Shown here one piece after another: positions 1 through 38,664 of a stretch of DNA of 64,000 bases. Position numbers and translations under genes: made by a program. Position 1 is the first letter of the stretch; each line of letters begins with the position of its first letter. Source of the DNA: Ginglymostoma cirratum (lineage: Eukaryota); contig JAHRHZ010000283.1 in NCBI GenBank assembly GCA_024137785.1, positions 45,572,680 through 45,636,679 on the forward strand, written 5' to 3'. The notes beneath the pieces are model-generated. The model did not search any database, was not told the DNA's origin, and worked only from the letters and a program-made list of their open reading frames with translations.

Positions 1-2685
1 TCTAGTGTCTGCAGTGTTTTCTGTTTGTTTTCAGATTTAATGTTCATTTTGGCTCATATTTGTTGGTTTTGCTGAGATTTATTTGTTTGCTTATTTATTT
101 ATTAAATAACATTTATTTGTTTGTCCAGAAGGTGGCATCCTCATAACCGTTGATGCATTTTGGGATCTTTAATCTGTTTGACCTATAGCTCCACACTGGT
201 GTTTGTCTTCAACTGCTCTATGTGTAAGATCATCGCAATTCCAAATTCCTTTCTGCTTCAGTAGGGATGGAGGCAGCTGAAGTTGGCACAATATTGGGTT
301 CCTACCTGATTCTGTGACATTTTCTGGGCGGGGTGGGGAGCAACGATTGACATGTTTTTCATAGCAAACATGGATCAATTTTGGTTTTGTTATCATGACT
401 CATCTAGAATTTCCCCTCAGAAATCAATGTCCTACTGTATTGTAAGAAACGCCACCATATTTAAGAAACTCAGCTCTAAATTACAAAGTTATTGTCTCCA
501 AGACGACAAACATACGTGCAAATGTAATATTGTTTTGGAGTATCCCACTGGAATATAGAGTTGGTTCAACATCCTGGGATTTTCTGCTTAAAAATTTAAA
601 AAGTTTTGGCAATCCACAGGCAAATGTGAATGAAAGTTTCAGAAGTATGCATTTGGAGCCTCATTCCAGTTTGCTACACAATAGCTCTACCCGACACTAT
701 AGGCTGACATGAAGAAAACTGGTTGAACCAGAATTATGAAGGACAGCAGACAGGTCTAGGAGGGGTCTTATGACTATGCATGTTAAGAATCAGCACAAGG
801 AGACACTCCTTTGGAGTTTATGTAGTTTCTTGTGACTCGGTTCAACAAGCCAAGTTGCGCTTCGACTTCCCTCCCCCTCTACCCTGAGCAAAATGAGTGA
901 ATGTAGAATTCCCAGCCAGCCACGGCCAATTTTTCAGCAATAGGTGGGAATACAAAATCGATCATGGACATCCTCTGCCACATGCAGCTCTTTACATACC
1001 TTTTCTCACAGACAAGTGACACAAAGTACATCTGCCTATTATGAGCAGGTATATCATCAATGTGTACAAATTAAACAAATAGGTCAAACAATTTTCTTTT
1101 ATCATATAGCACGATAGTGACACGAGATTATTGCTAATCTCCAGGATCCAAAGTTCTTACAGGGGCTTTTTTTTGGGGAATTTAAAAGTCCATGACATTT
1201 CATGCAGATGAAATCACATGGAGCATAGCTGACTGCAAAGGCTGTGGTGACAAATTAAAAGTTAAAAGAAATTACTTTTGCTGCATTTCAGAGGCAGCAA
1301 GTGTGTGGCAGGTCTCCAAGGCCAGTGGTAGCTTTCCTTTATCTCAAATCCAGGTAGAGTTCCTCAGAGAGGCATGACAGCTCACCAGAATGATGTTAGT
1401 GATTGTGGATGGAAATCTAGCTGTAATCAAAGAAATGTTTTTGATAATAAAGGAAGTCTCAACATATACAAATCCCAATCTTAATTTCTGATAATCCTTA
1501 ATCTTTCTCAAACGTCTCCAATTACTCAGCTGGTTAAAGCAGTGAATAATTACACTGTATGGGCCAGAAAGCTTTCATATTCAATTCACAGTAGCTGTGT
1601 CCAGGCCAAAGGAAGTTGTCCAACACAGGTCATCAGCATGTCATGGATCTTTCTGGAGTAAGTGTTGCTGTCAAAGACTGCTGGTTAGGCTGCTCGCTAT
1701 TTGACACAAACTGGTACACAGTCTGTACACTTGTACTTGAAAATTTCAATCTGAGTCCAAAATCCAAAGCATGGTCTTGATTTGACTATTTGAGGTGTCT
1801 TACACTCAGGATGTTTACTTCTTGCAGGCCCTCCTTTAAGCTGCATGTGGTGGGATTTTGGAACGTATCAGACAACCAAAGTGTTCCCTCGTACGCATTT
1901 CTCAAATGTTGGCCTCCCATTTTCATCGCTCGCTGGGACCTCCCAGTAACACGAGCAGCCGACAGTTGACAACCCCCTTCCCTTCCCCCACAACGTGCAT
2001 ATTCTCAGAGAAGTTAGATTAGTCCCTCTTTAGCAACTGTCAACACGATTTAGTAACTTGATGAGAGAGTAACTGCCATAATGGATGAGCCAATGTGCCC
2101 TCTTCTGCTGTGGTAAAAAAAACTGTGTTCTATATGTGCTGCTGAACCTAGTGGCAAGATTGAGAATTTGTGAGGAGTTGTATGGAGTAAAATCACTTCC
2201 ATACTCTTTAATACAAACTGGTTTATAATTCTGGCACAAAAGTCAAATCAACACAAATGCACGTGGAATGTCAATTATACCTGTGCCCGAACCTACACAA
2301 TTTGACCTTCAAATTCTGGTCCGGAGTTGGGGCAGGAAAAGAAAATTTCCTTTACCTGATCGGAATTATGCAGATTACTCTTCCATTTAAATATCAGACA
2401 ATTTTGTGAACCATCTGTGCTTTTTAAATTGTTAAAATGCTTTTTACATCTATGCTTTTTAACAATAAGGTATAAGCAAATGTAGAAAAAACTATCACTA
2501 TGCCCTCCTTTTTCAAAGTGCACAAATAATAGAAACTTAAACAAAAAGAACTGGTAAATTAAATGGTATTATTCACACTATCATATTTATTCTTTTGATC
2601 TTGCAGTATCCACTAGGTGGCATGCTTACAGTGAAGAATGTGCATGAATCAGCCTTTCAGCAACGCAATAAACTGGATAGCATAC

Positions 2686-2772
2686 CGACTCAAGGCAGTT
2701 CTCACATAGATAACCTCATTGTTAGAGAATTGGGCACCAGCCTGATGCAACAACTTGATAATTTCACTGTGC
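2686..2772 (-). pseudogene. ASPG: Paralogous copy of the ASPG exon at 49337-49423 (open, splice sites intact)
   Basis: 87 nt, ttctgcag|...|gtatg; HSEIIKLLHQAGAQFSNNEVIYVRTALS; hand count 66/87 nt and 17/28 aa identical to the functional exon, no indels. Confidence 0.9.
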
Positions 2773-3039
2773 CTGCAGAAAAAATAACAGAATCACTACC
2801 AACTGACAAGCAGAATATCCAAAAGTTGGAACAGAGAACCAATTTTTTAAAAATTGTTTACATTCAGTGAAAGCTATCATCAGCTTTAAAAACTGACTGT
2901 ACTTAACTTCCCTTTCACAGAAGAATTCTACCTAGATACTCCTGTTTATAAATTTTAAATTAATGGCCCATTTTCTGGGCTAAAGCTGGTGACTACTCAC
3001 CAGGTTAAAAGCGTCAGTATCATGTTTGACCTGATGGGG

Positions 3040-3213
3040 AGCTTGAGCCATTGCTAAATTGGACACGGCCCTTTTGTTTCGGTATGCATGGCCACTGCCT
3101 GAAATGAGCGCAGATACTACTGCAACATTACATAGAAACTCTTGTGCTTATTTCAGATCTGGATTCTGAAACACATTTGTCCCATCAGTGCTTGTGATAT
3201 GCAAATTCCACCT
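3040..3213 (-). pseudogene. Possible heavily decayed copy of the ASPG exon at 52819-52982
   Basis: Shared words (gcagatact, ccatca, ttcc..cct) in the expected order just upstream of the 2686-2772 copy. Confidence 0.3.
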
Positions 3214-3409
3214 CACATTTCCACCATCTTGGACTGCCTTTCCAGCTGTCCTTTATGGAATTACTGATGACTGCTCAAAACAGGTCACAAAACTTGGAAA
3301 CATTTCAGAAATTCTAAGAGAGGTCAAGTTTATTAAGTTCTGATATGATTTGGCAATAGTGAAAACAGCTACATGATGGTATTTCAGTGTTCGATCAGTA
3401 GGAGGCAGT

Positions 3410-3785
3410 AATGCATTCATTCATTAGCAGTCCCTCACAGCTAAGGATGACTCTCTTCCATTCTCAGGGTGAATCCGTAGGTGGCTGTGTAGACCAATGT
3501 GGTTTCTGCAGGCTCTGTTACACTTTGGGCAGAAGGCTGTCACAGGAAGGGGTGGGTGGGGCATTGGGTGTGGTAGCGCACTCCTTACGCTATTTTCGCC
3601 TGGCTTCTGATTTTTCCCAACGGCAAGTCTTGAGGTGCTCGATGCCTTCCCAATTGCTCCTCCTCTACTTTGGGCAGTCTTAGGTCAGGGATTCTCAGGG
3701 GTCCATTCTCCAGTGAGACCTTGAGGGTATCCTGAAGCACTTCCTTCGTCCACCTGGGGCTTGCCTGCTGTTTTGAAGCTGGCAC
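3410..3785 (-). mobile_element. RTE-clade LINE 3' fragment
   Basis: Translation ...LQDTLKVSL resembles the RTE C-terminal GGQxKRFKDTLKxSL motif. Confidence 0.55.
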
Positions 3786-3894
3786 AACAAGTATGTGACC
3801 ACAAACTAAGAAATGGGGACCCCAAATCTAGCCTCTTCCCGAAAACGTCAGGTATCGACAATCAAGCTGGGTAAGATATCAATCATAAGATAGA

Positions 3895-4565
3895 TAAGTT
3901 TGGAGCATGCATACAAATAAACTAAGAGAAAGAGAAGGCCATTCAGCCCCTTGAGCCTGCTCTAGCATTCAACAAGATCATGGCTGATCTGATTGCAATC
4001 TTAAAGCCAAACTCCCACCCACACCTTATAACCTATCATCCTTAGTTTAACAAGAACATATGTACTTCTGCCTTAAAAATTTCAAGGACTTTGCTTCCAC
4101 TAGCTTTTCAGGAAGAAAGTTTTGAAGACTATTATCACCTGAGACAAAAAAATCCCTCATCTCCGTTTTAAATGAGTCACCCTGATTTTAAGTAGAGACT
4201 TCTAGTTCCAGATTCTCTCATAAGAGAAAACACCTCTCCACCTACTCTGTCAAGACTGCTCAGGCTTCTATATGTTTCAATCAAGTTGTCTCTTACTCTT
4301 CTAAATTCCCATGGATATAACCCTAGCCTATCCAACCTTTCCCCATCAGGCTACACATTAATTCCAGGTCTGGTTAACTTTGTCTGAACTGCCTTCAATG
4401 CATTTGCATCCTTCATTAAATAAGGTGACTAGTGATGCGGAAATACTCCAAATGCGGTCCCACCAGTGCCCTGTATAACAGAAGTATAACCTCCACACCT
4501 CTGTATTCAATCCCCCGTGTTATAACTGATAAAATCTTATTAACTTTCCTAATTACCTGCTGTAC
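3895..4565 (-). mobile_element. CR1-type LINE 3' fragment, decayed
   Basis: Reverse complement of the CR1 RT C-terminus and 3' UTR seen in the other copies (ggccattcagccccttgagcctgct). Confidence 0.8.
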
Positions 4566-4569
4566 CAGG

Positions 4570-5915
4570 GTAAAATCATAAAGGAGATTAGAAAAGCAAA
4601 GAGCAGGAATTCAAAAGCTCAGGCAAGTTAAACTCAGGAAAACACAAAGATGTCTTATGAATAGATAAAGAGCAAGAGCAGAAGGAATTAGACACATTAA
4701 AGGTTATTGTGTGTGGAGTCATGACATGTGGGCATGGTTCTGAATGAATGCTCTGTTTCTGGTTTCAGGAAAGAGGATGACAATACAGACAGTATTGGAT
4801 GGTGGAATGTTGTGAGAGAGAAAACATTAAATGGATTAGGATTTTTAAAAGTGGACAAATTATGAGGCCCAAATGAAATATATCCTACACTGTTAAGAGA
4901 AGCAAGGGAAATCTTGGTAGAGGATGTGACCATCATTTTGAAATGTTCTAATGTTGTTTCATAGCTTTGAAAGGAAGGACATGATAATTAAAAGCCAGTT
5001 ATCTTAGCATCGGTGGTGGCCAAATTATTGCAAACAAACTTTGAGGAACAATAGAAATTGTTAGTTAGAAAGACACAAATGAATCAAGGACAGGCAAGAT
5101 AGATTTTAAGAAGTCATACATGAATATCTTGAGTGAATCATTTTGCAGAAATAACAAGGAGGGTTGATGGAAGGGAATTTGCTTCATGCAATCTATACAT
5201 TTATTCAAAACCCTTTTGGCAAGCCTGCACGTGGCGAGCCCAGAAATGTAAGACTTCAGGGGACGCAAGGATAAACAACACTTTCAATCCAGAACTGGTC
5301 AAAAAGTTCCATTGTATATTTAATTATATCACCCAAGGTCCCAAGTACACAAAATTTTATTGGAACTATATAGCATACTAGCTGGGCCAAAGTGAGAATA
5401 TTTTACAACAATTCTGGTTGCCACATTACAAGAAGGAGGTGATTACAATAGAAAGCATAGAGAGGAGACGAGCTGTTTGCCAAGAATGGTGTATTTTAGC
5501 TATAAAGAGAGTTTGGAAAGACCAGGACTGTTTCCTTTTGAACATAAGCACACGGGAGATTGAATCCAGTGTAGAAGACTACAAATGGCCTAAGTGGGGA
5601 AGATAGGGAAAACGTTTCTTCCTAACAATTCAAACAATAAGCAGACAATGGAGATTAAAATAATTGATGGAAGGATTATGAGGAGATGAGGAGAAATAGT
5701 TTCACCCAGCGGTGAGCGAGGGTCTCAAATACATTGACTGAAAGAGTGGTAGAGCCAGAAATCTTCATCACACCAAAAAGAATCTTGGAACTGTGTTTGA
5801 AATGTCATAACCTGCAGGCCTAGGGAATAATAGCTGGAAAGTTGAGCTGAGCTATACAGTTCTTTTAATTGACAGACATTTTGAGTTGAATGGCTTCATT
5901 CTGTGCTGTAAATTT
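4570..5915 (+). mobile_element. CR1-type LINE remnant, highly decayed
   Basis: Fragments matching CR1 RT (caattctggttgccacattacaagaagg; ttcacccagcggtg) and 3' end (gaatggcttcattctgtgctgtaa). Confidence 0.7.
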
Positions 5916-6130
5916 TCATGGTATTTATGTTGTTATCTTCTCTATCTGTCAATTTTTGATGATGCAATTAGAATTACAGTGCAATTAGACATATAACTAT
6001 TTGATAGGTCCAAACCATTTCCCAATGATTCTGCAGAGCAGAGTTGCTTTTGTATTCCTGTTTGTTTTCTGTGGACTTACCTTCAAAAGACCATTGCAGG
6101 ATACACCTTCTCTGACCAAGCCAGCAGGCT

Positions 6131-6450
6131 AGAATCCCTACAGTGTGAAAACAGGCCCTTCGGCCCAACTAGCCCACACCAAACCTCAGAGCATCCCACC
6201 CACACCCGTCCCCTTGTAACCCACCTAATCTACACATCCCTGAACACTACGGGCAATTTAGCATGGCTAAATCCACCTAACCTGCACATCTTTGGACTGT
6301 GGGAGGAAACCGGAGCACCCGGAGGGAACCCACGCAGACACAGGGAGAATGTGCAAACTCCACACAGACAGTCACCCAAGGCTGGAATCGAACCTGGATC
6401 CCTGGCACTGTGAGGCAGCAGTGCTAACCACTGAGCCACCGTGCCGCCCC
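6131..6450 (-). mobile_element. tRNA-derived SINE (HE1-like shark SINE)
   Basis: Minus strand GGCACGGTGGCTCAGTGGTTAGCACTGCTGCCTCACAG (A box), GGTTCGATTCC (B box), core CTCCCACAGTCCAAAGATGTGCAGG, CR1-like tail. Confidence 0.9.
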
Positions 6451-6472
6451 TGGAGGCTGGAGATTGCCTCCG

Positions 6473-6572
6473 TACATCTCATGTCACTTTGTAGCTGAAT
6501 GGAATGCAAACATGGGACATCAAGGGGACATGCTTCATGAGTGTCAAAAATGCCTCAATCCTCTTTCCCACT
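6473..6572 (-). pseudogene. Probable heavily decayed copy of the ASPG exon at 55464-55559
   Basis: Ordered shared words on the + strand (tagct, aatgca, acatgc, gtgtca, cctct); position collinear with the other remnants. Confidence 0.45.
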
Positions 6573-6677
6573 AGCACAGCAAAGAAAATCCCTGGCCTTT
6601 CAGTATCACCAATAGAGGTTCAATTTGGGCCTAAAGTACACAATGTAGAGAAAAGAAGGTCCAAGCAGGCAATCTAT

Positions 6678-7041
6678 TTTTTTTATTCATTCACGGCATG
6701 AGGGTGTTGCTGGCCAGGCAGCATTTATTGCCCATCCCTAATTGCCCAGAGGGCAGTTAAGAGTCAACCACATTGCCGTGGGTCTGGAGTCACATGTAGG
6801 CCAGACAGAGAAGGATGGCAGTTTCCTTCCCTAATGGACATTAATGAACCAGAGGGATTTTTTTTTGCCCCCCGACAATCGAGAATGGATTCGCAGTCAT
6901 GATTAGACTGGTAATTCCAGATATTTATTGAATTCAAATTCCACCATCTGCCATGGCGGGATTTGAACTCAGGTCCCCAGAACATTATCTGGGTCTCTGG
7001 ATTAACAGTCCAGCGATATTACCACAAGCCATTGCCTCCCC
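6678..7041 (-). mobile_element. tRNA-derived SINE, second family
   Basis: GGGAGGCAATGGCTTGTGGT head, GAGTTCAAATCCC B box, A-rich tail; partial copy at ~46555-46735 (+). Confidence 0.8.
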
Positions 7042-7199
7042 AATATTACCCACATGTTGCTCTACTTTAACATGTGCACTGCATAACTGCTGTTTGCTTT
7101 TAGCCATTGCATGATTTTGACCTTTTCTTAATGAATAATTAAACTTCCATTGTTAGAATAGAATCAGCTGTTTTGGTCATTCTCATCCTTCATTCAATG

Positions 7200-7320
7200 A
7201 TGTATTTACAATGACATGCTAAATCTGTATTCCTGAAAATTAATGAAGATTTGCTTTCTTCAGTGCAGGCAATCACACAGAATGTTTGCCCAGATTGGTT
7301 CAGTGTTACAGTTATTTGTC
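7200..7320 (-). pseudogene. Possible heavily decayed copy of the ASPG exon at 55822-55941
   Basis: Minus-strand TTCAGGAATACAGATTTAGCATGTCATTGTAAA resembles TTCAAGCTATTGCCAGATCTCTCAGTGTCAGCTGTAAA; spacing to the 6473-6572 remnant after removing the SINE (~270 nt) matches the real 262-nt intron. Confidence 0.4.
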
Positions 7321-7599
7321 AGAAAACAAACTTCCTTCTCAAACATTACTAATATACACAAAAGTGTGCCAGTTGGAGCATTCATCTGTTTGGGTTTCAC
7401 GTAGTTTTCTCACAAATGACATGCAAGTATGTTCCAATCACAAACTGTATTTCATTGTTTTCTTTGCTAATGACACAAGTAACAAGAACATGAATTGCTC
7501 TTCATAATTATCGATCATTGACCTGAAACTTTAACATGAGAAAATACCTCCTTTTCTGGGATAAAGTACTCCAGCTGTCTGATTTTCCTTGTCAATTGA

Positions 7600-9060
7600 T
7601 AGATTCTACAGAATATTCAAAGATGAATATTAATGACTGTCCTGATCCAACCCTCCCTTCTTCATGCAATCTAAGGAAATGTGCTTCCTCTGTATTATCA
7701 CAACAGTTTAAAAACCTGTTCCCTTTCCTGATTCCCCCTCTTCTGAAGATTTCTTAGCCATCCCTATCACTGCAATCAGTCTCCCCTTTAACTCCCAGCA
7801 ATGTCCTGCCTTATTACAATAGAAAACATGCTAATTACAACATGCTAAAACATGCTAAAATTACAATAGAAAACATGCTAAGTTCTTGATATAACTTTTT
7901 GATGCTAGTCTTTCTCCTTTATTACTTTGACATTCTTCTGCCTGTTCTCTAAAACATTCTCCATCTGCAGATTTTCTATGGATTCCCACATGACCCCATC
8001 TGCACATGTCTCTGTGAGATACCGTAGGTATCTACCAGAACTATTGTTTCTCTGAACTTTAATGTTTGATGCTCATGTAAATAAGTTTGTACTTTTATAG
8101 GAATGCTATTTCTGGATTCTTCCACAATCATAACTTACCTTACATTCTCATTTTTCTTTTCTCTTGCTTTAGTGACCTAAACCACACTGATCCCACTGCA
8201 TTTCTTTCCTCCTTGCAAATGTCTGATTAGGTTTCATTTTTGTCATCCTGTATTTTAATTAATAAGCTTCAGGGACAAGCTCATAAGTATTAAGTGTAGC
8301 CTTCTTGATAGTTTCATAATTTAAGGATTTTTCTCCTCACAAACTGCTGTATACAGTCATATATGTTCCTGACAAAACACTTTTCATCACTAAGGCTTAA
8401 ACATTTTCTGAATGTACCATCTGCACCTCATTTACAAATGAGGTAAAATACCTTTTGACTCCATCCTCAGCGAATTTAGACATTAACCATAAATTCTTAG
8501 TTAAATTTAAACCCTCATCGGAGTCAGAATCATCCTCCTACTACCACCACCCTCCATTATTATAAACAGTTCCATGGCCAACAATATGTTGTTTAAGTTG
8601 CTTATCTCTTTGGAGTTCAATTTTGTTTTAATTCCACCTCCCTCTCCTTTTTTTTCTTCCCTTTCTATTATCGTCCTTTCTTTTTCCCCTCCCTTTCCAT
8701 TTCAAGTTTTGTTAACGCAATCTCCATCAGTTTTTTTCTTTCCTCTAACTCAAGTCCTTTCCTTGCTTTAAATAATCCCTTCAGGTTTGTTAATCAAACA
8801 TTTCTGGTTTAGATTTTGCAAACTCTGAGCTAAGCTATTTCTAAATTACTCTGAATTAATTCCTTTCTCCAGGTGAGACTGTTCTTGCACCTAATCACAG
8901 CCAGGTCTTCTGCAAACAAACCCAAGGAACTTTCCAATCCGTGGGTTTGTCCTTAGCAAAAATTCAGTTCTTGATTTTACTCAACCAAAAGCAAGCTGAT
9001 GCCTTTCAATGTTTACCATCTCTGATTGTAAGACTCTCACAACAAACAAACTTGCAATAT
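7600..9060 (-). mobile_element. Gypsy LTR retrotransposon gag remnant
   Basis: Minus-strand fragments KFAEDGVKRYFTSF and LNTYELVPEA resemble Gmr1-type gag motifs. Confidence 0.5.
7813..7880. repeat. Short imperfect tandem repeat built from ACATGCTAA / TTACAATAGAAAACATGCTAA
   Basis: Four ACATGCTAA units seen directly. Confidence 0.8.
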
Positions 9061-9070
9061 CACTCCAAAA

Positions 9071-9328
9071 GAGCAGCATGGTGGCTAAGTAGATGGCACT
9101 GCTGCCTCACAACACCAGGGATGTGGGTTCAATTCCTGCCTTGCATGACTGTCAGTGCGGAGTTTGCACATGCTCTCTGTGTCTGCTCTGGTTTCCTCCC
9201 ACAGTCCAAAGATGTGCAGGTTGGGTGGAGTGGCCATGGTAGATGTAGGGCAACAGGGTTAGGGTAGAGTGAGATACTCTTTGGAGGCCCAGTATGGGCT
9301 GAATAGCCAGCTTCCACACTGTAGGGAT
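9071..9328 (+). mobile_element. HE1-like SINE
   Basis: Same head and core as 6131-6450. Confidence 0.85.
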
Positions 9329-9609
9329 TATACACTGATATACAATGACTTACATGATTTACATTCATGGCTCCAGAAAGACTGACAAGTTAATAATTAA
9401 ATCCTTCCACACACACAGATCAAAATTCACACAGCACAATTTCAAAATCCAATCTTTGAAATAAATGATATTTAATACGTAAAAATCACACATCTTGCAT
9501 CACAACAATTTGATCAGTTGCAGAGTCAATTTGACCGTACGTTGGGCTGAAAGTGAATTTGCTGAAGCAAAGGTGACTTATTTGGTTACAATGTGGAAAA
9601 AGGATAAAT

Positions 9610-11622
9610 TTAGGTTAGGACTATCGTCTGTCGGACGGTCTGTTGTACTTCTTAGAAGTACAGATAGATGATAGACCCATTACTGAACAAACCAGAGCAA
9701 AAAAGGAAAGTGGAACATCTTCAACACAGAAGAGAGAAAACCCTGTAAAGACTCAGGAAAGACAGGTACATTGTAATCTTACCAGTGGACAAAGGATGCA
9801 TGACAGTAATTCTCAGTATAATCCAACACATCGAGAAAGCTAACACACTACTAGCAGATATCGACACCTACCAACAGATGGCGATAGATCCAACACCACA
9901 GTTAAGGAACAGGATTACATACACGCTGAAGATTACATACACGCTGAAGATTACATACACGCTGAAGATTACATACACGCTGAAGATTACANNNNNNNNN
10001 NTGAAGATTACATACACGCTGAAGATTACATACACGCTGAAGATTACACAACTCAGGAAACATCAGCTAGATAGTCCATCAAAAAAAAGCCAGAGGGATC
10101 CAACACACCCCGATTCTGCAGACTGGCCAAATTATAGAGGGGTCCCCCTCAGACCCCTGTCTCAGTGCCAGGCACACCAACATATAGTCTTGCCAAACAG
10201 AAATTGAAATATTTAGTGGACAACACTACCCTTTCCATCCACTCATCCCAAGAATTCCTCAACATCATCAAGGACACCAGGGTAGAGGAGGACAAGGTGA
10301 TGATATCCTTTGATGTAACAGCACAATTTACATCTATAAACATCAACCGAGCCAAACAAAACACTGCTGGATGAATCAAGTAGGCAGGCAACCCAACGAT
10401 TTCAATAGGGACACTGTGAAACCACTAGATCTGTGCCTCAAAACCCACTTCACCTTCAACGGCAGCAAACAAAACAACGGAACACCAATGGAATTCCCAA
10501 TATCGGGACTGATTGCAGAAGCAGTAATGCAAAGGTTAGAACGAACAGTGCTCCCTACCACACAACCCAAACTTTGGGTCCGATATGTGGATGAGACTTT
10601 TGTGATTATTAAATGCACGAAACAAAAAGAAACACATCAACGCATAAAGAATATCCTTATCGGTACAAAATTCATGAAAGAAGAAGAGAACAGCAACCTA
10701 CTACCCCTCCTGGACATAATGGTAGAATGCAAAAACAACAGGGAACTCCAGACTAACGTATATAGAAAGACAACACATGCGGACCAGATACTCCCATTAC
10801 ATCAGCAACAACCCCAACGCCCACAAATAGAGCTTCATCAGGACACTATTTAAATGAGCCACAACACATTGCAGCAACCTGGAACTACACAAAGCTGAAC
10901 AGGGGCATTTATATGGAGTCTTCAAAAGAAATGGATACCCGAAAAGCACAATCCACATTACCTCCAAGACAGACGACAACAGGAAGACACAATATGACCA
11001 GAATCACTCATCACCCTACCATACATCAAGGACATTTCGGAGATGACCACAAGACTAGTCAGACCCCTAGGTATCAGAGTAGCCCAGAAACCAACTACCA
11101 TCCTACGACAGCTACTGACAAACACATCTGATCCCATACCCAAAACCAGTGTAATATACAAAATACCATGCAAGGCCTGTGAGAAACACGACATAGACCA
11201 AACCAGAAGAATACTGATAATACGGATACACAAACACCAACTAGCCACCAAGAGACACGACGAATTCTCACTTGTCTCACTACACACGGACAACGAGGGG
11301 CAACATATCAATGATTGCACAAGCCAAACAGAGACATGCTAGGGACTCCTGGAGGCCTGGTATTCCAACCGGAACTCATCAACAAACACATTGAATTAGA
11401 CCCAATGTACAAACCACTGAGAAACAAAACCAGAGGTAATACCGACCACCCCAGCGAACCAAGGCATATAAATAACAAGCGGGACAGAAAACCAATACTT
11501 CACCGGAGGCACATTGACTAAGTTACCTAGCAGGGTGACGAAACATTTGCAGCCACTGGCTCAGTGAGCATGTCTACAACCTCACCCACAACCCGAACTT
11601 CAAATCTTCTTGAAAACTTTAA
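9610..11622 (+). mobile_element. Penelope-like element (Penelope/Poseidon type), frameshifted
   Basis: RT motifs SFDVTAQFTSI, GTPMEFPISG, WVRYVDETF, VYRKTTHADQIL; GIY-YIG-like VIYKIPCKACEK; degenerate hammerhead near 11514-11547. Confidence 0.9.
9913..10048 (+). repeat. 18-bp tandem repeat GATTACATACACGCTGAA spanning an N gap
   Basis: At least six near-complete units around 10 Ns; translates as (KITYTL)n in the PLE frame. Confidence 0.95.
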
Positions 11623-12211
11623 ACGATAAGTTTAATTGTGAACTTCAGCACTGTCGTGGCTCCCCTAAAAAATCTACTGAAAGACGGCAAAAATTTTGAA
11701 TGGACAAAAGTGTGTCAGCATGCCTTTGACAATTTGAATGCTGACATCCACACTAGTTTTAGCATCTGCAGATTAGCAGCAGCAAGTTATGAGAGGGTAA
11801 CGCCAGTGTTGGCGCAGTGTTATTACAGAACAACATGAAGGGGATTGAATGACCTGACAGTAATTTTTCCAGGAAATTAAATGCATGTCAAAAAGCTCGA
11901 AGACATGATGGGTGCCTCACATTTGGCTCCTCACCCTTACACAGTGAGGATCCTTCTAACCCCCAAAAGTATTATCTTCATTCTACAACTACTATCCCTA
12001 AATCATGATGCATTCTGTAGTGTCTCCTGCAGGAACCAATGGACCACCCACAGTCTCCACGATCAAGGTGGTTGCTCTGGATCACATAGCCTCCTCCAGC
12101 TCTTAGGAAGAGAGCATGGTTATCCCAGAGTATGCTCCAGTAAATCTGCCTCCTCCACCTCCACTCCCTCCACCAACTCAGATACTGACACTTTGAAGTG
12201 GGAATATTACA

Positions 12212-12730
12212 TAGAAACATGGAAGATAAGAGCAGGAGGAGGCCATTCAGCCCTTCGAGCCTGCTCTGCCATCATCACGATCATGGCAGATCGTCCAATT
12301 CAATAGCCTAATCCTGCTTTCTCTCCATAACCTTTGATCCCATTCGCCCCCAAATGCTATATCTAGTTGCCCTTTGAATACATTCAATGTTTTGGCATCA
12401 ACTACTTCCTGTGGTAATGAATTCCACAGGCTCACCACTCTTTGGGTAAAGAAATGTCTCCTTATCTCTGTCCTAAATGGTCTACCCCAAAGCTTCATAC
12501 TGTGCCCCCTGGTTCTGGACACACCCAGCATCAGGAACATCCTCCCCTGCATCTACCCTGTCTAGACCTGTTAGGATTTTATAAGTCTCTATGAGATCCC
12601 TCTCCTTCGTCTGAACTCCAGTGAAAGTAATCCTAACCTAGTCAATCTCTCCTCATACGTCAGTCCCACCATCCCCAGAATCAGCCTGGTAAGCCTTCGC
12701 TGCATTCCCTCAACAGCAAGAGCTTCCTTC
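12212..12730 (-). mobile_element. CR1 LINE 3' fragment
   Basis: SRTRGHSMKLWGRPFRTEIRRHFFTQRVVSLWNSLP plus CR1 3' UTR. Confidence 0.9.
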
Positions 12731-13375
12731 CAAGTGTGAGACCACAATCTGGTGAGCACCTCACCAGGATAGCACTGCAGCTGGATGAGGAGAAAGTGCC
12801 CCTGATTGCTGGCACTCAGAGGACTGCCCGAGACCAGGTCCCTGCTCAGCCCTAGGCGGGCAAGGATCCCATAGTGTTGGCAATTCATTACTTCATTGAC
12901 ACAGGAGCAATAGGTGTGTTTGTTGGGGGGCATCGGGCAGCCTGACACAAAGGCTGCAGCAACACAGTTGCTCCCTCAGACATACTAGTGCCCTGGCATC
13001 TGCAATGGCCAAGTTGGCAGACGCCATGGAGAGCCAGGTCCAGCAGTGTCAGTACCTGCAGGATATATGCACAGGCCTGCATTCCATCCATCTAGCCACT
13101 GGGGCTCAGCACCAGCAACAAGGTAACAAAATAACAAGTGATCTCCAATTAGTCTTTCCTCACAAGGAGACACAGCAGTGTCAGCAGGCAGCCAGCAAGA
13201 GGAGGAACCTCATTCAGGCCTCTCTGAAGTCTCCTCTCAGGTCACTCCATAGACAGTTCAGGTTTTCACCTCCACCTTGCCTGCCACCCTCAGCCTGTGG
13301 AAGGTCATGCTGCTGAAGATATACCTGCCTCTGGGCAGGCATGTATGGACATTCTTTCTGACTGAAGTACATCAC

Positions 13376-13489
13376 TTTCCTGCTCGTATGTATACCCAGT
13401 TTAGTTTCCCCCTGTAAATAGACAACTTTACCAAAGCAGCTTCAGCTATAACATCATATTTAGAAATTACACCGAACAGTGGTGAGCTC
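13376..13489 (-). pseudogene. ASPG: Decayed paralogous copy of the ASPG exon at 60824-60937
   Basis: Same length (114 nt), retains tttag| and |gt; reads ELTTV/+1/GVISKYDVIAEAALVKL/-1/YLQGETKLGIHTSRK against ALTDVGLIPGGDMTPEAALAKLSYVLGKAELSIQEKRK; TAA at codon 10 in the spliced frame. Confidence 0.85.
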
Positions 13490-14179
13490 CTAAAATCAAA
13501 AAACAGAACCTGAAAAACAGGTTGAAATAAGGGGATTGTATAGCATCTGATAAAATAAGTTTGAAAGAGAATAAAACCACGAATTAATTCCAAATTTGAT
13601 GGTCATCAGGCCAGATAGGTAGTGATTCACAGTATGGATTTTATACCGTTGATACTAACTGTAAATTTGACATAAGGTCTTTGGAATTACTGAACTTAGG
13701 ATAATTTTAGAAGCAGTGCTTTACTTCATCCTGTCCAGTAGTCAGCTGGACTCAGACAGATTCAATCCTTTATATCTTTCTTCAAACCACAGACAAAGTA
13801 GGATGAAGGAGGAGTATTCTGCTCAATCTGGCCAGAATTTAAAGAGCTCTGCTGACAGAGCAGCTGAAAAACTACTTAACTGGCAATAGTTTTGCTATTT
13901 TTATTAAATGGCAGATTATTAAAATCAAAACCATGCTATGATTAGAATTATGATCGACAATTTTGGTTAAAACATATTAGGGCTGATATTATTCAGCATG
14001 CTTAAGTGGTATGGATTTGGCTGGGCAATGGAGTCAAATTACTTATTTTCATGCTATTGGCCGCACCATCTTGAATTTGGGCTTTAAAATAATTGGAGTG
14101 CCAGCCCATTTCAAATAGCAGGTGCTTCTAATAAACAAACAGGGGCTCAAAAAGCCTTAATGATAATTTTACCGTTCAG

Positions 14180-20721: not shown

Positions 20722-21025
20722 AGGGTGGCATAGTGGTTAGCACTGCTGCCTCACAGCACCAGGGACCCAGGTTCAATTCCACCCTCAGGCGATGGTCTGT
20801 TTGCACATTCTCCCCGTGTCTTTGTGGATTTCCTCTGGGTGCTCCAGTTTCCTCCCACAGTCCAAAGATGTGCAGTGTAGGTGGATTGGCCATGCTAAAT
20901 TTCCCATAGCATTCAGGGATGTGTAGATTAGGTGGTTTAAGGGGGGGAATTGGTCTGGGTGGGATGTCTGAGGGTCAGTGGGGACTTGTTGGGCTGTAGG
21001 GCCTGTTCCCGCACTGTAGGGATGG
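20722..21025 (+). mobile_element. HE1-like SINE
   Basis: GGTTAGCACTGCTGCCTCACAG, GGTTCAATTCC, CCCACAGTCCAAAGATGTGCAG. Confidence 0.88.
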
Positions 21026-21616
21026 ATTGATCGAAAAAGAAATAGAAAACTGATACAGTATAGATTTTAAAAAAGTCAAATTTTAGAGAGATTTTTGATG
21101 GCCGGAATGGATCAAAAGGAAATATGATGAATTAAAGGCGTCCTACTGACAATCAAGGAAATAGAACAGATATTTGTATGACTATTTTGAAATTGCTGTA
21201 TAGAGAAATGGAGAGTTAAGGGAAATCAACAAGAAAGATAAGGGGGCAGAGATCTAGTGTGGGATAAAATGTGGACTGTGATATTGAAGTTTGATCTCAT
21301 GTCAAGACTGTTGGAAATGGATGTTGGAAAGGTCAAATCTAAATGTGACAAAAGGATAATCAGGTTTCAGCAGGAAGTAAGATTTAAAAAAAACTTTTGA
21401 GAGTTCTGAAGTGGCTTCTACAATGCAAGAAGTTTCTCAAATTGATTCTAGTTGTTGGGCTTTTGATGGTTTAGGAAAGCTGAGTTGGTAAATATGCTGC
21501 CTATGGTTGAACTGAAACACATTTCTGAAATTATTTATTTCACATCACATTAAAAGAATACCTTGTATTGGTTTGAGGCCTGGAAGGAACCATAGCAGTC
21601 TACAGTCTACAGTCTA

Positions 21617-24481
21617 GATAATGAAGTCAGTGTGACTAAGGGGAAGAGTAGGCAGAGAGCAGATGATGAACGCAGAGGGACAGGCGGTCCGAGGTGCATT
21701 TGTTTTAATGCGAGAAGTGTAGTAGGTAAGGCAGTTGAACTTAGGGCTTGGATTAGTACCTGGGAGTATGATGTTATTGCTATTACTGAGACTTGGTTGA
21801 GGGAAGGGCAAGATTGGCAATTAAACATCCCAGGATATAGATGCTTCAGGCGGGATAGAGAGGGAGGTAAAAGGGGTGGAGGAGTTGCATTACTGGTCAA
21901 AGAGGATATCACAGCTGTGCTGAAGGAGGGCACTATGGAGAACTCGAGCAGTGAGGCAATTTGGGCAGAGCTCAGAAATAGAAAGGGTGCAGTAACAATG
22001 TTGGGGTTGTACTACAGGCCTCCCAACAGTGAGCGTGAGATAGAGGCACAAATATGTAGACAGATTATGGAAAGATGTAGGAGCAACAGGCTGGTGGTGA
22101 TGGGAGATTTGAATTTTCCCAACATTGACGAGGATTCACTTAGTGTTAGGCATTTAGATAGAGCAGAATTTGTAAGGAGCATCCAGGAGGGTTTTCTAGA
22201 GCAGTATGTAAATAGTCCAACTCGGGAAGGGGCCATACTGGACCTGGTGTTGGGGAATGAGCCCAGCCAGGTGGTTGAAGTTTCAGTATGGATTACTTTG
22301 GGAATAGGGATCACAATTCCGTAACCTTTAGAATACTGATGGACAAAGACGAGGAGTGGTCCTAAAGGAAGAGTGCTGAATTGGGGAAAGGCCAACAATT
22401 GCAAAATTCGACAGGAGCTGGGGAATGTGGATTGGGAGCAGCTGTTTGAGGGTAAATCCACATTTGATATGTGGGAGGCTTTTAAAGAGAGGTTGATTAG
22501 AGTGCAGGACAGACATGTCCCTGTGAAAATGAGGGATAGAAAGGGCAAGATTAGGGAACCATGGATGACAGGTGAAATTGTGAGACTAGCAAAGAGGAAG
22601 AAGGAAGCATACACAAGGTCTAGGCAACTGAAAACAGACGAAACTTTGGAAGAATATCAGGAAAGTAGGACCAATCTGAAATGAGGAATTAAGAGGGCTA
22701 AAAGGGTCATGAAATATCTTTAGCAAACAGGGTTAAGGAAAATCCCAAAGCCTTTTATTCATACATAAGATGCAAGAGGGTAACTAGAGAAAGGGTTGGC
22801 CCACTCAAGGACAAAGGAGGGAAGTTATGCGAGGAGTCAGAGAAAATGAGTGAGATTCTTAATGAGTACTTTGTGTCGGTATTCACTGAGGACAGGGACA
22901 TGACGGATATTGAGGTTAGGGATAGATGTTTGATTACTCCAGGTCAAGTCAACATAAGGAGAGGGGGGAAGTGTTGGGTATTCTAAAAGGCATTAGGGTG
23001 GACAAGTCCCCAGGTGTCCCGGAGGACTGGAGAATTGCTAATGTTGTCACCTTGTTTAAGAAGGGTAGCAAGGATAATCCAGGTAATTATAGACGGGTGA
23101 GCCTGATGTCAGTGGTGGGGAATCTGCTGGAGAAGATACTGAGGGATAAGATCTATTTACATTTGGAAGAAAATGGGCTTATTAGTGAGAGACAGCATGG
23201 TTTTGTACAGGGAAGGTCATGTCTTACCAACTTGATAGAATTCTTTGAGGAATTGACAAAGTTGATAGATGAGGGAAGGGCTGTAGGTGTCATATACATG
23301 GACTTCAGTAAGCCGTTTGATAAGGGTCCCCATGGTAGGCTGATGGAGAAAGTGAAGTCACATGGGGTCCAGATTGTACTAGCTAGATGCATAGAGAACT
23401 GACTGGGCAACAGGAGACAGAGAGTTGTAGTGGAAGGGAGTTTCTCAAAATGGAGAACTGTGACCAGTGGTGCTCCACAGGGATCCGTGTTGGGACCACT
23501 GTTGTTTGTGATATACATAAATGATCTGGAGGAAGGTATAGATGGTCTGATTAGCAAGTTTGCAGATGACACTAAGATTGGTGGAGTAGCAGATAGTGAA
23601 GGGACTGTCGGAGAATGCAGCAGAATATAGATAGATTGGAGAGTTGGGCGGAGAAACGGCAGATGGAGTTCAATCCAGGCAAATGAGAGGTGATGCATTT
23701 TGGAAGATCCAAGTCAAGAGCGAACTATACGGTAAATGGAAAAGCCCTGGGGAAAATTGATGCACAGAGATCTGGGTATTCAGGTCCATTGTACCCTGAA
23801 GGTGGCAATGCAGGTCAATAGAGTGGTCAAGAAGGCGTACGGCATGCTTTCATTCATCAGACGGGGTACTGAGTACAAGAGTTGGCAGGTCATGTTACAG
23901 TTGTATAGGATTTTGGTTCGACCACATTTGGAACACTGCGTACAGTTCTGGTCATCACATTACCAAAAGGATGTGGATGCTTTGGAGAGGGTGCAGAGGA
24001 GGTTCACCAGGATGTTGCCTGGTATGGACGGGGCTAGCTACAAAGAGAGGTTGAGTAGATTAGGATTATTTACATTAGAAAGACAGAGGTTAAGGGGGGA
24101 CCTGATTGAGGTCTACAAAATCATGAGAGGTACAGACAGGGTGGATAGCAAGAAGCTTTTTCCCAGACTGGGGGACTCGATTACTAGGGGTCACGATTTC
24201 GAAGTGAGAGGGGAAAAGTTTAAGGGAGATATGCGTGGAAAGTTCTTTACGCAGAGGGTGGTGGGTGCCTGGAACGCGTTGCCAGCGGAGGTGGTAGAGG
24301 CAGGCACGATAGTGTCATTTAAGATGAATCTAGACGGATACATGAATGGGGCAGGGAGCAGAGGGATACAGATCCTTGGAAAATAGGCGACAGGTTTAGA
24401 TAGTGGATCCGGATCAGCGCAGGCTTGGAGGGCCGAAGGACCTGTTCCTGTGCTGTAATTTTCTTTGATCTTTGTTCTTTG
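21617..24481 (+). mobile_element. CR1 LINE, 5'-truncated, near-complete ORF2 (APE+RT) with stops and frameshifts
   Basis: APE (NARS, AITETWL, YRPP, GDLN, LDLVL), RT ([24 protein letters not shown]), C-terminal FFTQRVV, (TTCTTTG)n tail. Confidence 0.95.
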
Positions 24482-25354: not shown

Positions 25355-26225
25355 AACCATCATACAGTCTCTGACTGAATGGGTACTTCTTACATTCTCT
25401 ACCTGTTTTTAGTCCTTTTTCTATTTTGGAAAACTCAAAAGCCCATCAGGATCTTTTAACTAAAGAACCATGAGTGACTCCACAATAATTGTCAAAGTCT
25501 GAAGCAAGTTGACTGAATTTACTTTCAAAAGATCAGACTTGCTCTTTTGTTCTCCAAATTAAAAAAAAGTCAAATTAGCAAAACTCATATCGTACCACCA
25601 TACTGGGGCAGCAAAATAGCATAGCAAATGACAGCAAAAAAATACATGAAGTTTAAAATAACCATACAAAACTACTAATTACAAAACCAACTTATTTTTA
25701 AATATTGTTGTATCACATTTGCTGGACAGCAAGTGAATGTCAGGTGACAGATCTGTGCAAAGTTTCTCAAGAGATACAGCAACCAACAAATGTGAAAACA
25801 CTGTAATGATTCAGGGAATCATGAACTCTTTAGCAAAGTTTTTTGCCCAATTTTTCATCAGACTTAGAATCTCTATGCAGGTTCACTGCTACCAATGTGA
25901 AGTAGTATTGGGACACAGAAACAGAACTAGCTTTCACTAAAATCAAACTTGATACTAAGACAGTGCTGAGGAATGACAGTGTCAATGAAGAAGTCACCCT
26001 GCTCTATGATGTCAACGAAACAGACTTGGATTAACCTTTATGCAGCCATGACAACCAGTTAACCATCACACAGTCTCTGACTGAAGGGGTACATGCCTTA
26101 TGTTCTCTACCTTTCTTTGGTCTTTTTACTATTCTGGAAAATTCCAAAGCCCATCAGTATCTTTTAACTAAAGAGCCATGAGGGACTTCACAAGAACTGT
26201 CAAAGTCTGAAGCAAGTTGACTGAA
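25355..26225 (+). repeat. Pair of ~165-bp direct repeats (25355-25517 and 26061-26225)
   Basis: Both start AACCATCAyACAGTCTCTGACTGAA and end GTCAAAGTCTGAAGCAAGTTGACTGAA. Confidence 0.9.
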
Positions 26226-27740: not shown

Positions 27741-27787
27741 TGTGAATCAATGGTTGTGAATAACTAGACATATCATAGAGTCATCAC

Positions 27788-27995
27788 AGAATCCTTACAG
27801 TGTGGAAACAGGCCCTTCGGCCTAACAAGTCCACACCGACCCACACAGCATCCCACCCAGACCCATTCCCCTATAAACCCACATAATCTACGCATCCCTG
27901 AACACTATGGGCAATTTAGCATGGCCAATCCACCTAGCCTGCACACCTTTAGACCGTGGGAGGAAACCGGAGAACCCAGAGTAAAACTGCAGACA
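27788..27995 (-). mobile_element. HE1-like SINE, 5'-truncated
   Basis: Matches the 3' two-thirds of 6131-6450. Confidence 0.85.
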
Positions 27996-28470: not shown

Positions 28471-29719
28471 CAGAATTATATCAATCTTTGTCTCCTTGCC
28501 TTCTTTGAGTTTGCCTAATTTTTTCACAATTTTATTCAAATGCTTTTATTTCATTGCTCATCTCATAGTTCCGTGTCATCTACACTTATTCTATCCCAGA
28601 TAGGATACGAAAGTAATTATTTAATGTTTCTGCCTTCTCTCCATTGCTGTCTGTAGTATTATGCTGTCAATCCTTTAATGATCTTATTTCTATCAGCCTT
28701 CCTTTCTTCTACTGATGTGACTGCAAAACATTTTACCTTTTAAAATTAGCAGGGAACATAAAGCAATGTCATTGATCCTCTTTGGCTTTCTAATGACTTT
28801 TTAAAAAATGTCCATCTCTTCATATTCTATCTCATTGCAGTCTTCAACTATCCACGTACTAAATGCTTGCATCCATGGAACCACACAGGTTTAGTTTATT
28901 CTTTCCCTCTTGAGGAATACATTTTTCTGCACTCTGTTCAAGACAATTTCAAAAGTTTCCCTCTATCAATATACACAATTGTTTACCAATACAGTCAGCA
29001 ATTTTATTTCCTGAAATTCTATTCTTAGCCCCTCAAAATCAGACGTTCTCGGATCTATTACTTTGTTTTTCATAATATTTATGTCCTCTCCATTATCTTA
29101 ATAAAGTGTGCTCTATTATGGTCGCTATATTACTGTCAGGATTTTCCTTTATCTTTAATTCTCTCAGTTTATGTAGTTCATTCCCCATTACTAATCCAAA
29201 AACATTCCCTTGTTGAGCTGTTTACATAATGATGTCATCAAATGGCGTGGTTTCCTGATCTTCTTCCCTTTTCCACACCTATTATCAATCCCTTATCTAT
29301 CTTTGTACTTTTGAAGAGGAAAGGGTGTGGGGGATTTAAGGATAGGGTATAAATTATAAAGAAATTGTAGCAATTCATATTTCCTAATTGCCAATGCATT
29401 ATGCCTCACTGAGGCAGCATGCTAAAAGTCAAGCCCGCTATTTCCAGAGTTGTCACAAGAGTTAAATTTTTTTTCAAAGTACATAAATTACACAATTTAC
29501 CTGTCTTTTAGACCCAGGTTGCCAGAAAGCATGGACCAAATTTCAGTACTTAATAAAAATGACTATTTATTACAGTAATAAATACAAGTGAACAGTAATG
29601 AATCAGTGGCAGTTTAGTACAGGATGGTGTATGAGCATGCACTTTGGTCAGAAGAATCAAAAGACAAACTATAACTTAAACAGAGAAAGATTTTTTTAAA
29701 AAAAATTACAACAGAGGGG

Positions 29720-29908
29720 TAGAGATAACAAGGTGTAGAGCTGGATGAACACAGCAGGCCAGGCAGCATCAGAGGAGCAGGAAAGCTGATGTTTTGCGTC
29801 TGGACCCTTCTTCAGAAAATGCCCCTCTGATGCTGCCTGGCCTGCCGTGTTCATCCAGCTCTACACCTTGTTATCTCAGACTCCAGCATCGGCAGTTCCT
29901 AATATCTC
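29720..29908 (-). mobile_element. Minimal Penelope-derived fold-back element (189 bp) with a decayed hammerhead in the loop
   Basis: ~54-bp inverted arms (29722-29775 / 29824-29877, one mismatch); TSD TTACAACAGAGGGG at 29706-29719 and 29909-29922. Confidence 0.9.
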
Positions 29909-29922
29909 TTACAACAGAGGGG

Positions 29923-30525
29923 AATTTGTGTGTTCTTGCATATGAAACATAAAAGGTTAGCATGCAATGGCAGCAAGTAATTAGGATGGCATATGGAATT
30001 TTAGCTTTTATTGCTAAGGTGTTGGAGCTGTACAGGATGTTGCTGTGATTGCACTGGGAAGGCTGCATTGAAGGCTGTTCAAAAGAGATTTACTAGGCTT
30101 ATTGTTGGGATGAAACAGTTCACTTACCAAGTACAACTAAACAGGTTGGACCTTTATTCATTGAAGTTTAGAAGAATGAGGAGTAGAAGATACAAGATTC
30201 TGAGGGGACTTGACAGGGTAAATGATAAGAAGATGCCTCCACTAGAGAAGGGTCTTGAACTAGGGGGCATAGTTCCAAAATAAGAGGACTTTTATTTCAT
30301 GCCGAGATGCAAAGGAATTTCTTCTCCCAGAGGACAGCGTATGCCTGGATTTTTTACCCTAGGGAGTTTGGAGGGTGGAATCACCAAAATTATTTGGAAG
30401 AGATATAGATACTTGAAATTTCAGGGGGTTGCTGGCTATCATGAGCTGGTATAAAAGAGACGTTGAAGCCTGTGGCAGATCAGCCATGATCCTGTTGAAT
30501 ACTGGGGTAGGCTGGAGAGTCTGAA
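29923..30525 (+). mobile_element. CR1 3' fragment
   Basis: ALKAVQKRFTRLIVGMK, YKILRGLDRV; 3' UTR gatcagccatgatc. Confidence 0.8.
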
Positions 30526-38636: not shown

Positions 38637-38664
38637 GACGTTTCGGGCCTAGACCCTTCATCAG
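38637..38664 (-). ncRNA. Hammerhead ribozyme core (PLE minimal type)
   Basis: CTGATGA-a-GGG-tctagg-CCC-GAAACGTC. Confidence 0.8.

Follow-up and report, generated by a model that had tools for sequence, protein, structure and literature searches.

Duplicated (unprocessed) pseudogenes lie next to their parent gene on the same strand, keep its introns, carry disabling lesions, decay neutrally and receive insertions of mobile elements; old ones are common. To our knowledge, ASPG is usually treated as a single-copy gene of vertebrates. The vertebrate protein, the 60 kDa lysophospholipase, is a type I L-asparaginase with ankyrin repeats, and its catalytic residues are Thr19, Thr116, Asp117, Lys188 and Tyr308 (PMC12128190; Thr19 also in PMC5443537). 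Vertebrate asparaginases are under study as leukaemia drug candidates (PMC12128190, PMC5443537). The first-pass annotation of the DNA analysed here knew of no described tandem paralogue of ASPG, and a literature search at the level of titles and abstracts likewise found none, whether in sharks or in tandem; 12 of the 24 supplementary files of PMC8455134 held no match.

The window analysed here is a stretch of 64,000 nucleotides of the shark Ginglymostoma cirratum. It contains seven exons of a functional ASPG gene (45256-60937), 97% identical to whale shark ASPG. Once spliced, they give an open frame of 747 nt in which 242 of 249 amino acids are those of the whale shark protein (P0088), and their translation also matches the solved guinea pig and human ASPG. 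The exons are numbered 9 to 15, which we take to be their numbers in the human gene:

60824-60937, minus strand: functional exon 9, parent of the copy at 13376-13489
55822-55941, minus strand: functional exon 10, copy not found
55464-55559, minus strand: functional exon 11, copy not found
52819-52982, minus strand: functional exon 12, copy not found
49337-49423, minus strand: functional exon 13, parent of the copy at 2686-2772
45524-45623, minus strand: functional exon 14, copy expected about 1 kb ahead of the window start
45256-45321, minus strand: functional exon 15, copy likewise expected ahead of the window start

Two segments elsewhere in the window resemble exons of this gene. With high probability, in our judgement, both are what is left of another ASPG copy, on the same strand and with introns included. 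A single tandem duplication near the root of the galeoid sharks is its likely origin, and for most of its existence it was likely without function. The pseudo-exons and the blocks of homology around them are:

2686-2772, minus strand: pseudo-exon, copy of ASPG exon 13 (ankyrin region), with an open frame, intact AG/GT and altered invariant residues
13376-13489, minus strand: pseudo-exon, copy of ASPG exon 9, with +1 and -1 indels, an in-phase stop and AG/GT kept
2477-3213, minus strand: block A, the 3' part of intron 12, the exon 13 copy and the 5' part of intron 13, matching 49098-49856
13355-13828, minus strand: block B, the 3' part of intron 8, the exon 9 copy and some 20 nt from intron 9, matching 60804-61306
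13951-14144, minus strand: block C, intron 8 DNA only, matching 62174-62389

The exon 13 copy is the best-preserved part of the remnant. Compared with 49337-49423, 66 of its 87 nt (76%) are identical, as are 17 of 28 amino acids, and its local alignment score is 333, whereas none of 1448 null windows exceeds 120; the length of 87 nt, the AG/GT splice dinucleotides and the translation match originally reported are all borne out. The exon 9 copy scores 224 (maximum of 1448 null windows, 130). Its 114 nt, AG/GT dinucleotides and homology stand as claimed, but the equal length results only from compensating +1 and -1 indels: ungapped identity to functional exon 9 is only 49/114, a stop appears at codon 10 when the copy is read in the phase of the functional exon, and the protein match (17 of 35 amino acids) needs two frames. 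The two copies have the order and strand first described, spanning 10804 nt against 11601 nt in the functional gene, with offsets of 47448 nt (exon 9) and 46651 nt (exon 13) from their parents.

Because the homology runs into introns, we read the remnant as a DNA-level tandem duplication and not as a retrocopy or a misassembly. Block A is 61.5% identical over 793 columns (E 6e-42, score 882), block B 61.6% over 515 columns (E 2e-26, score 594) and block C 60.8% over 217 columns (E 6e-5, score 227); the respective maxima among 66 null windows were 112, 142 and 84. The blocks keep the collinear order at offsets of 46.6-48.2 kb and together make up about 1.4 kb of recognisable DNA. Their identities are alike, at 61-62% when gaps are counted and 66-69% in aligned intron columns. 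Both exon copies lie within collinear blocks, so the collinear alignment of at least two exons on which the initial proposal depended is present, and the view of an old tandem duplication that has become a pseudogene gains strength, as the intron DNA is homologous too. In a processed (retro) pseudogene the exons would be joined and the introns gone; here the flanking introns are homologous. Eight of nine tests of outward or inward extension of the blocks stayed at null level, the lone candidate being a short collinear match of 13837-13871 to 61981-62017 that 4.5% of the null reached. Homology to ASPG ends at about 14144. The intronic homology blocks add to the list of features in the first-pass annotation.

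Three fainter remnants had been placed in the expected order between the pseudo-exons. None withstood comparison with about 1445 null windows, of which 3.3% equalled or bettered the alignment of the expected exon at 7200-7320, 29% that at 6473-6572 and 64% that at 3040-3213. The score at 7200-7320 is non-specific: the exon expected there scores 94 on it and 96 on 6473-6572, and the exon 12 query reaches 102 on 7200-7320, above the expected exon. The segment 3040-3213 is homologous to intron DNA near 49680-49856 and belongs to block A. Copies of exons 10-12 were not detected, although in simulation decayed versions of these exons exceeded the null in no fewer than 99% of trials (300 per setting); rather than the whole, evenly decayed copy with exons 10-12 that had been implied, only two exon-centred islands survive. 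A frameshift-tolerant ASPG profile scan of 1-44500 (31 segments) revealed nothing beyond exon 9 (score 51) and exon 13 (score 80; null maximum about 41), and tblastn with shark, ray and paralogue proteins yielded no additional exon in 1-44 kb. Exons 1-8, whose functional versions lie past the end of the window, were sought by protein profiles, the simulated detection power covering exons 10-12 alone, and the profile scan found no trace of them at 14-44 kb. A candidate third copy at 29372-29455 (exon 14-like, score 112) was rejected, as 25 control queries reach 115 and the match had no extension.

The DNA that separates the islands has the following features:

3214-13354, no strand: filler between the blocks, with no detectable homology to 49857-60803
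9749-11327, plus strand: decayed reverse-transcriptase element (RVT_1, E 1e-4 at 10314-10850; ends estimated from open reading frames)
8031-8600, minus strand: degenerate remnant of coding sequence from a large protein family (600 matches at E<=0.001, best 4e-23)

At least 3960 of the 10141 nt of filler are in-window repeats or the reverse-transcriptase element. The remnant at 8031-8600 matched no Pfam family and is presumably retrotransposon gag-like, to go by its motif, and the open reading frame at 12900-13313 had neither a significant Pfam match nor an Atlas match. Six-frame Pfam scans of 1-29100 returned endonuclease and reverse-transcriptase domains only; 29101-44100 was covered by Pfam on the longest open reading frames and by the ASPG profile scan, and Rfam gave no matches. 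Chaining of weak matches across the masked filler produced a best score of 2, against 3-7 in 14 controls, and 7%, 81% and 5% of null windows did as well as the three filler regions suggested by the diagonal when these were aligned directly. The figures behind the reported similarity in span are correct, but in a filler so rich in repeats the similarity probably arose by chance, through losses and inserted repeats. The sole assembly gap of the window (10 N at 9992-10001) falls between blocks A and B. It sits in an 18-bp tandem repeat (9913-10048) inside the reverse-transcriptase element, which continues on either side.

Judged by its sequence, the copy is dead, with a frameshift in exon 9 and losses of invariant residues as in neutral decay. 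It has altered 12 of 28 invariant columns and 11 of 35 variable ones, so that invariant sites were not spared; in the same 28 columns, the bamboo shark (P0192) and smooth-hound (P0099) proteins have each altered one. Neutral simulation gives about 12 invariant changes at d near 0.3; neutral divergence to that extent, about 0.3 substitutions per site, makes up at least half of the whole intron distance (0.40-0.46). The pairwise dN/dS of 0.27 (95% interval 0.01-0.57) fits early death and also a spell of selection, and does not separate an early from a late death of the copy. The original wording, "mostly pseudogenised", is right about the pseudogene and too cautious about its extent, which is full. 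Intron homology, disabling lesions and the absence of purifying selection on the protein are those of a duplicated (unprocessed) pseudogene. As an ASPG enzyme the copy fails: in the profile scan of 1-44500, none of the exons for catalytic residues rose above the null, and a continuous frame through the ankyrin repeats is absent, the exon 13 copy alone remaining within the window. The remnant is predicted to produce no enzyme.

Divergent second forms of ASPG are already annotated among NCBI-named shark proteins: P0192 of Chiloscyllium plagiosum ("60 kDa lysophospholipase-like"), P0099 of Mustelus asterias ("60 kDa lysophospholipase") and P0241 of Cetorhinus maximus ("L-asparaginase 1-like"). 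P0192 and P0099 form a clade (support 100/99) with 33 derived residues in common, and make up a second ASPG lineage in sharks, separate from canonical ASPG, whose cluster has 28 sequences. Two trees of the named shark proteins without duplication were rejected (AU p 4e-7 and 3e-9). Both proteins are full length and keep the catalytic motifs. Thr34, Thr138, Asp139, Lys210 and Tyr331 of P0192 align to motifs of guinea pig chain 5dnc_A (mapped by motif, the numbering offset being inferred), and matching motifs are present in P0099 and P0241. The nucleophile loop of the intact paralogue reads TGGTMTM instead of TGGTIGM. The basking shark protein P0241 is degenerate, missing the exon 13 region and ending early, and is a third divergent form. 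Going by these database proteins, some other sharks seem to have retained a second, apparently intact ASPG; the three named forms imply a duplication of the gene in galeoid sharks.

We propose that one tandem duplication, probably by unequal crossing-over (assumed, as no breakpoint repeat was identified), copied ASPG plus introns on the same strand; exons 10-12 would then have been lost by deletion, with mobile elements filling the gap. The duplication would be older than the split of Ginglymostoma cirratum from the whale shark, and the same episode may have given the divergent proteins of bamboo shark, smooth-hound and basking shark. We give no absolute date, the consulted parts of two shark genome papers (PMC10620051, PMC7677710) holding no usable calibration. 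Placement of the copy rests on 63 residues and is tentative. Its best positions lie around the galeoid (duplication) node, within 0.2 log units of each other, and the AU test on either backbone rejects only 3 of 20 attachment points; a position as sister to the window's own ASPG (p 0.09) is not rejected. The copy retains two ancestral residues, the His that starts exon 13 and the Thr in GKT, which in whale shark and in the window gene alike are replaced by Arg and Ala, respectively. The diagnostic residues conflict, with the Asn-Asn of exon 13 as in canonical genes and an Ile as in P0192 and P0099.

This explanation may be refined: with a chance that we put just under even, a specific shark paralogue that survives elsewhere has its dead orthologue in this remnant, be it the paralogue of basking shark (P0241) or that of bamboo shark and smooth-hound (P0192/P0099). 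The maximum likelihood tree sets the copy beside P0241, albeit unsupported (0/22), and at the EAALAK site the copy has Val and P0241 Ile, one base apart, the other 16 rows having 13 Ala and 3 Ser. The exon 13 Ile points towards P0192 and P0099, and all three named forms have five derived residues in common that are absent from 11 canonical cartilaginous-fish sequences. Yet neither placement is better than the alternatives, and orthology to P0192, which is intact in another carpet shark, fits poorly with neutral decay of such extent. Almost as probable, though somewhat short of even, is a separate origin, in which part of the canonical gene was duplicated independently of the intact paralogue lineage, the duplicate being dead on arrival and perhaps never holding exons 1-8. 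The lack of exon 1-8 traces at 14-44 kb and the end of homology near 14144 are in line with this, as is the Asn at the first position of the Asn-Asn pair, found only in the copy, whale shark, horn shark and the window gene; moreover, placing the copy as sister to the canonical carpet-shark pair (delta logL 0.03-0.2) is as likely as any placement. Such an origin, however, requires a second ASPG duplication at about the depth of the paralogue split, and makes the Val/Ile and Ile matches to the paralogues a coincidence.

Continued use of the exon 13 copy as an exapted exon, coding or non-coding, in some transcript is improbable. Its open frame, good polypyrimidine tract, AG acceptor and GTATG donor would agree with it, and under neutral models the chance that the frame and both splice sites survive is just 0.03-0.15, but this probability is biased, the exon having been noticed for its preservation. 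Moreover, 5 of the 12 altered invariant residues fall in this best-preserved segment, including the Arg split by its upstream junction, and the profile scan found no partner exon. Separate copying of the two islands, for example by mobile-element transduction, would account for 10 kb between them with a chain score below all controls; we think it very unlikely, given blocks on the same strand, in the right order, at near-equal offsets and equally diverged. Six of the 15 top weak filler matches also lie near the expected diagonal, a post hoc count that was not significant on direct test. Least credible, to the point of being negligible, is an assembly artefact (duplicated haplotype) or a retrocopy. 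The 10-N gap falls within the interval, but inside a tandem repeat of one element, and identities of 61-76%, with intron DNA included, are far under allelic levels; a misassembled haplotype had already been held unlikely on this ground.

The remnant is thus a duplicated pseudogene of the ordinary kind, and it directs attention to a paralogue of ASPG in sharks. Alone it carries little weight, and it is useful as a marker. We tentatively entertain, at rather less than even confidence, a wider picture in which galeoid sharks would have a tandem family of two to three ASPG genes without prior description: one paralogue would be intact and diverging in bamboo shark and smooth-hound, where the TGGTMTM loop may shift its activity as an asparaginase or as a lysophospholipase; a second would be in decay in basking shark; and the window would hold the fossil of one of them, marking the locus and a lineage-specific loss. 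A paralogue with motifs kept and an altered active-site loop would be a test of how the kinetics and substrate range of the enzyme can change. The Mustelus protein P0099, labelled as plain ASPG, may be the paralogue and would then mislead orthology-based studies. Compared with vertebrate ASPG, the copy derives from two exons and comprises about 66 codons, frameshifted and lacking the exons for the five catalytic residues. P0192, P0099 and P0241 branch at about the depth where it fits best; of these, P0192 and P0099 have their full length and their catalytic motifs, whereas the copy is dead and a candidate for orthology only. With duplicated pseudogenes it is alike throughout, with no categorical difference, as an old one worn down to those few recognisable blocks.

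The exons of the functional ASPG gene in the window, located by scanning for splice sites and ORFs and by tblastn searches using named shark proteins, carry what we take to be the exon numbers of the human gene (9-15).

60824-60937, minus strand, functional ASPG exon 9
55822-55941, minus strand, functional ASPG exon 10
55464-55559, minus strand, functional ASPG exon 11
52819-52982, minus strand, functional ASPG exon 12
49337-49423, minus strand, functional ASPG exon 13
45524-45623, minus strand, functional ASPG exon 14
45256-45321, minus strand, functional ASPG exon 15

Joined, the seven exons form a 747-nt open frame, and the protein is identical to whale shark ASPG at 242 of 249 residues and to horn shark ASPG at 222 of 249, which makes a carpet shark the likely source. 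The exon at 60824-60937 (minus strand) matches chains of known structure from ASPG and from type I asparaginases; exons 1-8 fall past the window end. Inverted repeats (44738-44893 and 46279-46434, 93% over 156 nt) flank exons 14-15.

Sensitive blastn and nhmmer recovered three collinear blocks, each outscoring 66/66 null windows.

2477-3213, same strand as 49098-49856, block A (61.5%, E 6e-42)
13355-13828, same strand as 60804-61306, block B (61.6%, E 2e-26)
13951-14144, same strand as 62174-62389, block C (60.8%, E 6e-5)

The duplication is DNA-level, and aligned intron columns of copy and parent are 66-69% identical (JC 0.40-0.46). The block distances are likely underestimates, because the blocks were detected through being conserved and unrelated pairs also align at 60-64%, although the six control pairs do so in shorter, gappier stretches with fewer transitions. 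Block-level homology, introns included, excludes a retrocopy as the source of the remnant, and a block identity of 61-62% excludes a duplicated haplotype.

In a frameshift-tolerant profile scan of 1-44500, only two exon copies rise above the null.

2686-2772, minus strand, copy of exon 13
13376-13489, minus strand, copy of exon 9

The former scores 333, where the best of 1448 null windows reached 120, matches exon 13 at 66/87 nt, and has an open frame with AG/GT present. The latter also stands as an ASPG exon copy (224 against a null maximum of 130), but its equal length, cited in the first-pass annotation, is an artefact of one +1 and one -1 indel: without gaps it matches exon 9 at 49/114 nt, and read in phase it meets a stop at codon 10. 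Copies of exons 14-15 would be expected ~1-1.4 kb ahead of the window start; a candidate for the 3' half of exon 14 (29372-29455, minus strand) was rejected, its weak likeness scoring inside the null range. The ASPG catalytic residues named in PMC12128190 are Thr19, Thr116, Asp117, Lys188 and Tyr308; none of these lies in the surviving exons.

The fainter remnants proposed as further exon copies fared poorly. Aligned to the exons expected there, 7200-7320, 6473-6572 and 3040-3213 are equalled or exceeded by null windows in 3.3%, 29% and 64% of cases; the match at 7200-7320 is not specific to one exon, and 3040-3213 is a copy of ASPG intron 12. When exons 10-12 were decayed in simulation to d 0.35-0.45 with indels (300 trials each), at least 99% of trials gave scores above the null (medians 217-442); the best real scores in the window copy were 85, 72 and 74, where the null maxima were 79, 73 and 88, the 85 being a 41-column match at 7748-7787. 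Once repeats were masked, no homology to 49857-60803 could be chained across 3214-13354 (score 2, against 3-7 in 14 controls), and at least 3960 of the 10141 nt there are in-window repeats or reverse-transcriptase element. Since exons 10-12 were not found and the gap is rich in repeats and mobile elements, the similar span of copy and parent, once read as a duplication signal, is likely coincidental. As a caveat, a 10-N assembly gap separates the blocks (9992-10001); it sits within a tandem repeat of 18-bp units, and one and the same element lies to either side of it. The segment 8031-8600 derives from a large protein family, possibly gag-like by motif, and is decayed. Sequence of unknown origin (12750-13354) starts ~20 nt past the donor of the exon 9 copy; its plus-strand ORF 12900-13313 (138 codons) has no significant Pfam or Atlas match.

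Other elements occur across the window. An open frame of 575 codons that matches RVT_1 and GIY-YIG (38940-40664, minus strand), Penelope-like by domain content and young in appearance, is bracketed by inverted repeats 92% identical (38592-38963 and 40518-40874). A long LINE-like element (21596-24383, plus strand), which carries both an endonuclease and a reverse-transcriptase domain, has a related copy at 42938-44107, and 25355-25517 and 26061-26225 are inverted repeats (87% over 165 nt). A multi-copy SINE-like family, which we take to be the shark HE1 type, lies at 6125-6450, 9073-9330, 20724-21036, 27770-27995 and 47994-48277 (70-87% alike).

Judged by its sequence, the copy is dead. Compared with 14 canonical ASPG sequences, it is altered at 12/28 invariant and 11/35 variable columns; neutral simulation reaches 12 altered invariant columns at ~0.3 substitutions per site, though the range is wide. 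Against the parent, dN is 0.28 (0.19-0.39), dS 1.07 (poorly bounded) and dN/dS 0.27 (0.01-0.57), an interval that takes in the 0.5 expected where just one copy was ever constrained. The kept frame and splice sites of the exon 13 copy speak against this reading, their chance under neutrality being 0.03-0.15; we treat them as ascertainment. The intron-spanning blocks, the exon 9 indels and in-phase stop, and the altered invariant columns thus uphold the proposed old tandem duplication of ASPG, now pseudogenised.

Homologue searches (best 120 of 965 and best 120 of 502 matches listed) gave, among the matches listed, three divergent named shark ASPG proteins.

P0192, Chiloscyllium plagiosum (bamboo shark), named "-like"
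P0099, Mustelus asterias (smooth-hound), named plain "60 kDa lysophospholipase"
P0241, Cetorhinus maximus (basking shark), named "L-asparaginase 1-like"

P0192 and P0099 form a clade (support 100/99, 20-protein tree); in the species tree, the bamboo shark is closer to the whale shark than to the smooth-hound. With a 17-row alignment, both no-duplication trees were rejected (AU p 4e-7 and 3e-9) and none of four duplication trees was, the one with the split before horn shark giving p 0.066. The pair share 33 residues that none of 11 canonical cartilaginous-fish rows has, and P0241 has 5 of these as well. These comparisons indicate that a second ASPG lineage, apart from the canonical one, exists in sharks. 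All three proteins retain the catalytic motifs, but in P0192 and P0099 the loop following the nucleophile reads TGGTMTM; P0192 further carries Thr in place of the conserved Gly that precedes Ser-Gln, and Asn in place of Asp two residues past the catalytic Lys, both near the active site. P0241 may be decaying or mis-annotated, as the exon 13 region is missing from it and the protein stops short. P0099, whose N-terminus is canonical-like although it groups with P0192, may be the paralogue or a chimeric model. A search of literature listings found no account of the remnant or of a shark ASPG paralogue.

The copy likely predates the split between whale shark and the window-gene species, because it retains an ancestral His and Thr where both canonical genes have Arg and Ala. 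Its best attachments all cluster at the galeoid node and differ by no more than 0.2 log units; just 3/20 attachment points were rejected on either backbone (AU), and a sister position to the window gene was not (p 0.09). Single-residue affinities conflict: in EAALAK the copy has Val and P0241 Ile, elsewhere the copy shares an Ile with P0192 and P0099, but its Asn-Asn is shared with the canonical genes. Orthology to the paralogue intact in bamboo shark fits badly with the early death suggested by ~0.3 neutral substitutions per site, and we argue against it; an orthologue of P0241 and an independent duplicate are about equally open.

We consider it very probable that one tandem duplication of ASPG, followed by loss, accounts for the whole. 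It would have arisen near the galeoid radiation, probably via unequal crossing-over, for which no breakpoint repeat was identified. The copy would have lost function early; the exon 10-12 region, which is gone, would then have been deleted, with mobile elements refilling the gap. The remnant is a duplicated pseudogene, a familiar kind of feature. In the carp Labeo rohita, the ASPG models P0135 and P0227 each hold two asparaginase domains in tandem, and residues 12-359 and 362-866 of P0135 both align to horn shark ASPG, which suggests a separate tandem duplication merged by annotation.
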